The notes: generated from the sequence alone by a model not told the origin. A stretch of DNA of 32,000 nt from Candidatus Saccharimonadota bacterium (GCF_023585745.1 NZ_CP097762.1:390001-422000); one strand, 5' to 3'; counted from the stretch's first letter, positions 4,596 to 6,764 are shown. Translations and numbers: made by a program.

Positions 4596-4596
4596 A

Positions 4597-4669
4597 TGCG
4601 TTCTAATGGATTTGAACCATCGCCCTCTACCATGTCATAGTAGCGCTCTACCATCTGAGCTAAGAACGC
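4597..4669 (-). tRNA. tRNA-Val (anticodon GAC), CCA not encoded
   Basis: The reverse complement GCGTTCTTAGCTCAGATGGTAGAGCGCTACTATGACATGGTAGAGGGCGATGGTTCAAATCCATTAGAACGCA folds as a 73-nt cloverleaf. Acceptor GCGTTCT/AGAACGC, D stem GCTC/GAGC, anticodon stem CTACT/GGTAG, loop AUGACAU, T stem GATGG/CCATT and T loop TTCAAAT. It resembles E. coli valV/valW, which map near ribC. Confidence 0.93.
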
Positions 4670-4933
4670 ATATATAATATATAATAATGTATTTTAATAC
4701 AAAAATATATAACTTACATAAATCAAAAAATACATTTAAATATGTACACTATTATCATACATAACAATATGTTACAAATACAATTATAATATATGTACAA
4801 AAACTTTTAAATAATATAAGATACCTATCTTCCAATTTAAATGTTTAACAAGTATTACTCAATATAATATATTATATGTTATACTACTTTATAAATAAAG
4901 TATCATGTTATTTATTAATAATATTTAGAACAT

Positions 4934-5543
4934 ATGTTTTCAGGTATTATACAAGCTGTTGTCCCCGTGCACGCTATTCACGAAAAAAACAATCTAAAAC
5001 AATTCTCAATTATTTTACCTAATTATTTACTTACCAACTTAAAAATTGGTTCTTCTATATCAAACAATGGATGTTGTTTAACAGTAATTTCCATTAAATC
5101 AAATTTAATTAGCTTTGAATTAATATACGAAACACTAAAATTAACTAATATGAATTTGTTAAGAATAGGAGATCTCATTAATATAGAAAGATCACTAAAT
5201 TACAATGCTGAAATTGGAGGACATTTGATGTCTGGGCACATTGATTGCACAGGAACAATTAAAAAAATAATCCAATCAACACACCAAAAAATATTTTGGT
5301 TTAATTTAAAAAACCAAACTTTTCAAAAGTATATTTTACCACATGGCTCAATAGGTATTGAGGGAGTTAGTCTTACAATAAATAAAATAATAAAAAATAA
5401 TATACGTATTTGCTTAACACCATATACTGCAATAAACACAACACTTGGAAAAAAAAATAGGTGATATAATAAATATTGAGATTGATATAATAACAAAATC
5501 TATTGTTAATAGCATTAACAGAACACTATCGATAATTGATTAA
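4934..5543 (+). CDS. ribE: riboflavin synthase (alpha chain), reading frame broken in an A9 tract at 5449-5457
   Basis: The 176-aa ORF (4934-5464) matches the first ~180 aa of E. coli riboflavin synthase (MFSGII.., NGCCLTV, EIGGHLMSGH, TTLGKK). The missing C-terminus IGDIINIEIDIITKSIVNSINRTLSIID* is present in the +1 frame at 5457-5543 (E. coli has LGARVNIEIDPQTQ..). Confidence 0.85.
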
Positions 5544-5678
5544 AAAAACAAAACCCGAACTATTAATTTTTTTAGATGAAAATATAGAAAATCTTCTAAA
5601 CTACACGCACAATAAAAACCTATTTAACCCGTTTATGCTAATAAACTATTAATAAAAAAATTAGCTATTATGATAAAT

Positions 5679-5996
5679 ATGAAAGATACAATAAAAAAAA
5701 TTGAAGATCAAATAAAAAAACACCCAGTAACTTTATACATGAAAGGTACGCCGGAGACTCCTAAATGCGGATTTTCTGCAAAAGCTGCTCAAATACTATC
5801 TATTTATACAAAAAATTTTTTTTATATAGATGTATTATCATATCCAGACATTAGGTCTACTTTACCAATTTTTTCCAATTGGCCTACTTTCCCGCAGCTG
5901 TGGATAAAAGAAAAATTAATAGGAGGCGTAGATATAATGCTGGAATTACACAATTCAGGAAAATTAAAAATCCTTATTAATTCAGCAACATTATAA
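5679..5996 (+). CDS. grxD: monothiol glutaredoxin Grx4
   Basis: The CGFS active site (PKCGFSA) and WPTFPQLW..GG.D are present. Starting at the ATG at 5679 gives the same N-terminal length as E. coli GrxD. An alternative ATG lies at 5670. Confidence 0.9.
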   Translation: MKDTIKKIEDQIKKHPVTLYMKGTPETPKCGFSAKAAQILSIYTKNFFYIDVLSYPDIRSTLPIFSNWPTFPQLWIKEKLIGGVDIMLELHNSGKLKILINSATL

Positions 5997-6101: not shown

Positions 6102-6764
6102 TTAAGATACGATAATGTTGTGATGCTCTGATACTGGCCATCCACCAAGCCTTTTCCACTTATTAACTAATGCACAAAATAATACCGCTGTTCTTTCAGT
6201 GTCATATAAAGCAGAATGAGCCTTGCTTTTATCAAAAAATATACCTGCATAAGCACATGCTTTAGCTAATACTGTCTGACCAAAAACTAATCCACTTAAA
6301 GTAGCAGTATCAAAAGTAACAAAAGGATGAAATGGATTATTTTTCATAAAACTAACACGATCTACCGCTGCCATTAAAAAACTATGATCAAAAGAAGCAT
6401 TATGCGCTACGATAATAGCACGACTACATTCTTGAGCATCAAGACCTTGATGTACCATATTAAAAATTTTCCTTAATGCCTCTTTTTCAGTAACCGCAGA
6501 ACGCTTTGGGTCATTAGGATCAATTCTGTTAAACGCTAAAGACTCCGGTTGAATAATAGCTCCTGGAAAAGATTTAATATTAAAATGCAAAGAACTATCA
6601 ACAGATAACCAACCAAAATCATCCATTTTTACTGTAATAATAGCAATTTCTAACAAAGCATCAGTTTTAGCATTCAAACCGGCTGTTTCTACATCAATTA
6701 CTACCGGATAAAAACCACGAAACCGAGCCTTCAAAGTATTTTGATTAACTTTACAATAAATCAT
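6102..6764 (-). CDS. rnt: ribonuclease T (DEDDh 3'-5' exoribonuclease)
   Basis: [26 protein letters not shown] and [15 protein letters not shown] are present. It is 220 aa versus 215 aa in E. coli. Confidence 0.95.

Follow-up and report, generated by a model that had tools for sequence, protein, structure and literature searches.

A gene whose reading frame is broken inside a run of adenines may be a pseudogene, a gene rescued by slippage of RNA polymerase or a product of sequencing error, and the question raised here is which of these applies to the riboflavin synthase gene (ribE; ribC in E. coli naming) in a 32,000-nucleotide stretch of bacterial DNA (the window). The initial annotation posed the same three-way choice, and it is supported by the evidence described below.

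The ribE locus

The frame-0 ORF of ribE (4934-5464, plus strand), present in the ORF list and confirmed by translation, encodes a product of 176 amino acids that ends in ...TTLGKKNR and contains lumazine-binding barrel 1 in full and the greater part of barrel 2. Direct reading of the sequence places nine consecutive adenines (A9; 5449-5457, plus strand) inside the gene, in the context ...ACACTTGG-AAAAAAAAA-TAGGTGATATA..., and frame arithmetic together with the DNA of 12 orthologues marks this homopolymer as the frameshift site. Translation in frame 0 reaches a premature TGA (5462-5464, plus strand) two codons past the tract (...GKKNR-stop). The +1 frame is free of stops from 5445 to a TAA at 5541-5543 and reads (LEKK)IGDIINIEIDIITKSIVNSINRTLSIID, where IGDIINIEIDIITKSIVNSINRTLSIID begins at the last A of the tract. 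Translation, model match and alignment identify the latter as the last 28 codons of ribE, which with their TAA occupy 5457-5543 (plus strand) and encode two elements, the beta-strand with which barrel 2 ends and the C-terminal helix from which the coiled coil of the trimer is built; IGDIINIEIDIITK is a stretch of this +1-frame piece on the 3′ side of the tract. The initial annotation had placed the stop, the tract and the end of the +1 frame at exactly these coordinates.

The upstream neighbour of ribE is a tRNA-Val (GAC) gene on the opposite strand (4596-4670, minus strand; ARAGORN), so ribE starts its own transcription unit. A promoter-like sequence, TTAACA-17-TATATT (4845-4873, plus strand), lies about 60 nt 5′ of the ribE ATG, but the consensus scan that detected it does no better than chance in this AT-rich DNA (12 sites, versus 16 expected in shuffles), and scanning for promoters and terminators around ribE gave no signal that exceeded chance. 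The downstream gene is an intact grxD encoding a Grx4-family monothiol glutaredoxin (5670-5996, plus strand; TIGR00365, 131.7 bits against a cut-off of 117), and another intact neighbour is rnt, encoding ribonuclease T (6102-6764, minus strand; TIGR01298, 312 bits). The window contains seven more A/T runs of 9-10 nt (476-484, 12041-12050, 14303-14311, 29557-29565, 29577-29585, 29788-29796 and 29816-29824), none of which was flagged by the genome-wide frameshift screen described below.

Identity of the gene and consequence of the truncation

The truncated product matches Pfam Lum_binding (PF00677, E=4.5e-34) and scores above the cut-offs of both the NCBIfam equivalog PRK13020 (196.1 bits, cut-off 180; model positions 1-173 of 206) and TIGR00187 (179.1 bits, cut-off 156.6; model positions to 174). 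Joining the two frames adds 26 bits to the PRK13020 score, bringing it to 222.5 bits with coverage of model positions 1-199 of 206, and raises the TIGR00187 score to 207.5 bits; the second Lum_binding domain (residues 100-185) is complete in the joined protein only. The joined protein aligns with E. coli riboflavin synthase (1I8D) over residues 1-200 (E=3.6e-54) without a gap, with three residues at the tract, where the E. coli sequence is TTLGKKKLGARVNIEID. These matches bear out both the initial identification of the gene and the claim that an A11 message would have the E. coli spacing. No single frame holds two full barrels and a trimerization helix, the end of barrel 2 and the helix being in the +1 frame; judged by its sequence, the locus is a member of the riboflavin synthase family by descent, though not a single-frame gene.

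In trimeric riboflavin synthase the active site is located where neighbouring subunits meet, and the chains build a triple coiled coil from their last ~20 residues (PMC13151069). With neither the last strand of barrel 2 nor the C-terminal helix on which trimer cohesion depends, the 176-amino-acid product is probably inactive. A split enzyme was also considered, in which this product would be complemented in trans by a TTG-initiated ORF of 32 amino acids (5445-5543), but it was rejected for want of a ribosome-binding motif and of any precedent.

The genome and the state of the site in relatives

The contig to which the window belongs is single, with a length of 746,321 bp and a G+C content of 27.4%. 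The genome collection holds 15 congeners, all of 0.7-0.8 Mb, and in a protein search the nearest RibE homologues bear Blochmannia names. The genome is that of a Blochmannia, a symbiont of carpenter ants, and is most likely the 'B. ocreatus' assembly. According to Manthey et al. 2022 (PMC9251289), this assembly of ~746 kbp was obtained from one Camponotus ocreatus worker by Illumina NovaSeq shotgun sequencing and MinYS (Minia + MindTheGap), and 'B. ocreatus' sits on a long branch of its own; neither 'frameshift' nor 'riboflavin' occurs in that paper.

An intact, single-frame ribE encoding ~202-214 amino acids, with three codons at the tract site, is present in 13 of the 15 congeners. In one of the others (G013), ribE is a remnant with eight stops, and in the second (G009) a search of the 15 congeners found no ribE; these two states agree with the published riboflavin losses of B. 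obliquus and B. turneri. Intact congeneric copies read TTLG-x-K-x-IG at the tract site, and the DNA of the 12 orthologues there is, for example, GGT GAA AAA AAA ATA GGC or GGA GAT AAA CAA ATA GGT. Because the orthologues hold three codons at this site, the A9 tract is either two nucleotides short of the ancestral in-frame A11 equivalent or one nucleotide over an in-frame A8. The initial prediction that eight adenines would give TLGKKIGD and eleven would give TLGKKKIGD is arithmetically sound, and the orthologues identify A11 as the ancestral spacing. Copies of this lysine-rich site are repeatedly A-rich across the genus, five relatives having runs of A7 to A9, and the site is therefore a natural hot spot for slippage.

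The frameshift itself is absent from all 13 congeneric copies and was seen only in this genome, and the protein database contains ~30 more Blochmannia-like RibE sequences, which are of full length (201-242 amino acids). As no RibE relative in the protein search exceeds 72% identity, this comparison is among congeners and includes no conspecific strain; an exact-protein search with the truncated RibE and the adjacent GrxD found no other contig. In this comparison, made between species only, the lesion lacks the cross-species conservation of an ancient frameshift, and since every relative is free of it, there is no evidence that it has been maintained over the long term. The downstream piece of 28 residues is conserved as well as free of stops, just as first described: 22 of its 28 residues are identical to those of the nearest orthologue, compared to ~70% in the rest of the protein.

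Other tract frameshifts and the quality of the assembly

Frameshifts were sought genome-wide by tblastn of this genome (G000) against two congeners (G004 and G002), with inspection by eye and a second pass on C-terminally incomplete hits, a procedure that may miss short terminal pieces (the 28-residue piece of ribE is too short for a significant HSP). Five further genes were found to have one frameshift each in an A/T run of 9-11 nt, followed by a long, open and conserved downstream frame: hisH (A11, genome 516294-516304), trmD (A10, genome 192286-192295), coaE (A10, genome 157462-157471), ybeY (A9, genome 340507-340515) and ung (T10, a sense-strand poly(T) near the N-terminus, genome 611468-611477). 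The downstream frame of all five is at -1, such that one additional nucleotide in the mRNA restores each of them; ribE alone among the six has its downstream frame at +1 and needs the loss of one nucleotide or the gain of two, and one extra A in its message gives GKKK-TAG. The frameshift of hisH at A11, known as an 'ancient' Blochmannia frameshift (PMC5009743), is common to G000 and G004, and hisH is intact in G002. In trmD, which encodes tRNA m1G37 methyltransferase, 171+ downstream codons are open and conserved, and the lesion is found in G000 but not in G004 or G002. This gene is generally essential in bacteria, and loss of TrmD function raises +1 ribosomal frameshifting. The frameshifted trmD indicates that the organism lives with tract-frameshift alleles even in a generally essential gene.

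Of 188 coding tracts of 9 nt or more, 182 lie in frame within conserved ORFs and 6 (~3%) are broken. Published Blochmannia genomes, some of them Sanger-sequenced, have 4-8 frameshifted genes among 114-153 long tracts (PMC4389277, PMC3017870), and the agreement argues against a generally error-prone assembly. This bears on the explanation that A9 is an artefact of the consensus or reflects length polymorphism within the host, the true or predominant tract being A8 or A11 and the ninth A a homopolymer error or a choice of path in the assembly graph. There is some reason to entertain it: the 'B. ocreatus' assembly comes from a single ant, with no polishing or manual curation of frameshifts described in the accessible portions of its publication (PMC9251289), homopolymers are known hot spots for indels, and a single colony sample can contain two genotypes (PMC3268670). 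Nevertheless, the explanation is improbable given that the share of out-of-frame tracts equals that of Sanger-sequenced, curated Blochmannia genomes, that the published and biologically real hisH frameshift is reproduced in both G000 and G004, and that A9 would have to differ by -2 or +1 from a plausible true length. A further point against an artefact is that the short-read consensus at 9-nt runs is usually reliable at deep coverage.

Several other sites in these genomes are of interest in their own right. An A16 run (G000:C1:96994-97009) and an A12 run (76295-76306, within an ORF of 608 amino acids at 75478-77304) lie in conserved ORFs whose frames are unbroken as assembled; tracts of such lengths should slip heavily during both replication and transcription. 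The frame of nuoA (NADH-quinone oxidoreductase subunit A) changes at an (AT)n repeat (G000:C1:550985-551031), with a downstream identity of ~45%. An erfK-like L,D-transpeptidase gene with the HGT...GCIRL motif (L058/L059, region of G004:C1:760924) is frameshifted at an A9 tract with its downstream frame at +1, the same configuration as in ribE; recurrent frameshifting of erfK in Blochmannia has been published.

Tests for decay of ribE

Apart from the single frame change at A9, there is no stop or indel in either piece of ribE. Rates of protein evolution were compared by splitting the protein distances of 558 reciprocal-best orthologue triples (from G000; G004, 780,225 bp; and G002, 722,585 bp) onto three branches, synonymous sites being saturated at ~70% protein identity. 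The share of the G000 branch is 0.355 for ribE, which is the 73rd percentile of a distribution with a median of 0.323 and a 5-95% range of 0.235-0.418, in a test on three taxa that cannot detect a very recent loss of constraint. Residues unique to G000 are as frequent downstream of the tract (3/28, 10.7%) as upstream (19/176, 10.8%). The initial annotation had pointed to the other riboflavin genes as informative, and ribA, ribB, ribD and ribH proved to be intact, as did ribF: each is one open frame and scores above its Pfam cut-off. Four of these five partner genes evolved more slowly than the median on the G000 branch (ribA, 4th percentile; ribD, 9th; ribF, 12th; ribH, 33rd), the exception being ribB (84th).

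With one lesion, an ordinary rate and intact partner genes, ribE does not have the profile of a decaying pseudogene. Such a profile is seen in pgm (phosphoglucomutase, G000:C1:350558-352189), which has decayed through at least two frameshifts and 11 stops to ~45% identity with its G004 counterpart; G002 (722,585 bp) likewise yielded no intact pgm ORF. Either the ribE lesion is recent in comparison with the long terminal branch or selection still acts on the gene; in a piece of only 28 downstream codons, freedom from further damage counts for little and does not separate the two. The initial suggestion of a recent event or an ongoing rescue agrees with the lack of a second lesion, the unaccelerated rate and the otherwise intact riboflavin pathway.

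The same data bear on the explanation that ribE is a fresh pseudogene, killed recently and with negligible rescue; this lineage would have begun to give up riboflavin provisioning, independently and as the third in Blochmannia, the other rib genes not having had time to decay. Several observations fit this explanation. Riboflavin genes have been lost in two other lineages of the genus (PMC4389277; represented by G009 and G013), and the finding that ribA, ribB, ribC and ribD are all pseudogenes in B. obliquus is as expected if one initial hit leads to the collapse of the pathway (PMC4389277). Among the relatives searched, the lesion occurs in this genome only, and the genome is a smaller one (746 kb, versus 780 kb for G004) that does hold true pseudogenes such as pgm. 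The truncated RibE is without the coiled coil that builds the trimer, between the subunits of which the active site lies, and its repair needs the rarer -1/+2 correction, the commonest slippage product running into a stop. On the other hand, a fresh pseudogene requires a narrow window of time, for there is no second lesion in 610 nt and no rise in rate on a long terminal branch; its five partner genes are intact and slow-evolving; the real pseudogene pgm looks quite different; and single tract frameshifts are tolerated in genes that cannot be dispensable (trmD in this genome, ribF in G002). We regard a fresh pseudogene as a possible but doubtful explanation.

A proposed leaky, tolerated allele

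The explanation that we prefer, with about an even chance of being correct, is that a genuine indel, specific to this lineage, shifted the frame within the poly(A) tract of a ribE that is intact in all other respects, and that the gene is leaky by virtue of polymerase slippage and is tolerated. The DNA as written would yield the 176-amino-acid, probably inactive RibE. In a minority of ribE messages, RNA polymerase would slip on the A9 tract to produce A8 or A11; the former would be translated as ...TLGKKIGD... and the latter, with the ancestral spacing, as ...TLGKKKIGD..., and both would give full-length enzyme. The remaining messages would give the 176-residue product or one truncated in a similar way, and hardly any out-of-frame residues would follow. 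A +1 shift of the ribosome on the lysine codons of the run would have the same effect and could contribute. The gene would then be a down-tuned allele, supporting a pathway that still works at a reduced level, with full-length enzyme in presumably sufficient amount.

Such behaviour has good precedents. RNA polymerase slips on runs of at least 9 A or T in bacteria, and 12-50% of the transcripts of frameshifted genes are corrected in Blochmannia and Buchnera (PMC5009743). Rescue by poly(A) slippage, which the initial annotation gave as reported for insect endosymbionts, is thus documented for Blochmannia itself (PMC4389277, PMC3017870, PMC5009743), and annotators of Blochmannia genomes count such tract-frameshifted genes as intact (PMC4389277, PMC3017870). 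The structure of ribE is that of the slippage class: a single indel in a run of at least about 9 nt, in a gene that is otherwise intact and not accelerated. Also in favour of leakiness, the same genome tolerates five like lesions (hisH, trmD, coaE, ybeY and ung), and the -1/+2 class has precedents in otherwise intact genes (ribF of G002 and the erfK-like gene of G004).

The direction of the required correction weighs against it. In transcriptomes of E. coli and Buchnera, most of the errors in homopolymer runs are insertions of one base, and few deletions fall in runs (PMC5574713). Because ribE needs the disfavoured -1/+2 change, its rescue should be less efficient, and all five of the other frameshifted genes, unlike ribE, need +1. 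A further point against leakiness is that some hosts do without riboflavin synthesis, as B. obliquus and B. turneri demonstrate (PMC4389277). The otherwise intact genes of the three genomes (G000, G004 and G002) hold 18 tract frameshifts, 13 in the +1 class and 5 in the -1/+2 class, as counted by an automated tblastn screen in which some cases were inspected; this bias would fit either insertion-biased slippage in transcription or deletion-biased slippage of DNA. The idea that the need for a -1/+2 correction excludes rescue was considered as well, but it is weakened by these 5 of 18 cases, one of which is the frameshifted and otherwise intact ribF of G002.

A variant of rescue, in which the lesion is real but the correction is mainly translational, would have ribosomes slide or shift by +1 on the lysine codons of A AAA AAA A. 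The downstream frame is at +1, as this would require, and tRNA-Lys can re-pair one base forward within the run. E. coli bypasses indels in homonucleotide repeats by means of the polymerase and/or the ribosome (PMC3812077), and correction at the level of translation in endosymbionts and organelles is mentioned in a review on recoding (PMC5009743). However, the site has no stimulatory feature, the frame-0 codon after the run being AAU, which puts neither a stop nor a rare codon in the A site at the slip position, and the mechanism documented in Blochmannia is transcriptional (PMC5009743). We consider predominantly translational rescue very unlikely.

Implications

Frameshifts in homopolymer tracts, their occurrence in this genus and the way in which annotators handle them have all been published, and ribE is a further lineage-specific case; for the field it is an incremental example of a published phenomenon. 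In PMC4389277, PMC3017870 and PMC9251289, neither ribE nor ribC is named as frameshifted. A tentative proposal is that the locus represents either a third independent loss of riboflavin synthesis at its very start, or an intermediate in which A9 serves as a slippage-buffered bridge as the tract shortens from A11 through A10 and A9 to A8; at A8 the gene may be in frame again, one lysine shorter. Either way, ribE would show how tract frameshifts of the unfavourable -1/+2 kind behave in comparison to the +1 class.

Riboflavin is one vitamin that the Blochmannia of Camponotus are thought to supply to the host. If A9 is real and poorly rescued, C. ocreatus would be a third host with a need to obtain riboflavin elsewhere, and the locus would date the first step in the collapse of the pathway. 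If the gene is rescued, it adds a case of -1/+2 correction and bears on how far the infidelity of polymerase buffers frameshifts. In addition, tables of gene presence and absence that are built from automatic annotation can score such genes as lost though they possibly still work.

Comparison with known systems

The riboflavin synthase of E. coli (RibC, 1I8D) is colinear with the joined product over residues 1-200 and has the same two lumazine-binding barrels and C-terminal helix, but it is encoded in one frame, whereas Blochmannia ribE changes frame at the equivalent of the KKK that precedes LGARVNIEID. The nearest parallels to the lesion are the slippage-rescued poly(A)-tract genes of Blochmannia and Buchnera, of which hisH is an example (Tamas et al. 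2008 and Wernegreen et al. 2010, as represented in PMC5009743, PMC3017870 and PMC4389277). Like ribE, these are otherwise intact and unaccelerated genes with a single indel in a long run of A, and they include genes of the same genus. The lesion in ribE differs in being confined to a single lineage rather than shared across species, in lying at the short end of the range of tract lengths (A9) and in being of the -1/+2 rather than the +1 class; furthermore, correction of those genes was seen in transcripts, while that of ribE is a prediction. Programmed transcriptional slippage at a coding A9 run is described for another bacterial gene, dnaX of Thermus thermophilus, whose mRNAs vary in length and are translated into products of two frames (PMC5009743). 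Slippage in dnaX is conserved and yields two functional products, however, and there is no sign of a use for the truncated RibE.

The ribF gene of B. vafer (Williams & Wernegreen 2010, PMC3017870) is also a flavin-pathway gene with a lineage-specific poly(A) frameshift, a downstream frame at +1 and a need for -1/+2 correction, and it was judged potentially functional by its authors, its rate not being accelerated (PMC3017870). Its break is near the N-terminus, in contrast to that of ribE, 28 codons from the end. All Blochmannia have kept ribF, a presumably indispensable gene, but two lineages have lost ribE. Those two, B. obliquus with its four rib pseudogenes and B. turneri, from which the genes are absent (Williams & Wernegreen 2015, PMC4389277), concern the same pathway in the same genus and show that ribE (there ribC) can be dispensable. 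In both of them the pathway has collapsed, through multiple lesions or the disappearance of genes; in the present genome, one lesion stands among five intact partner genes.
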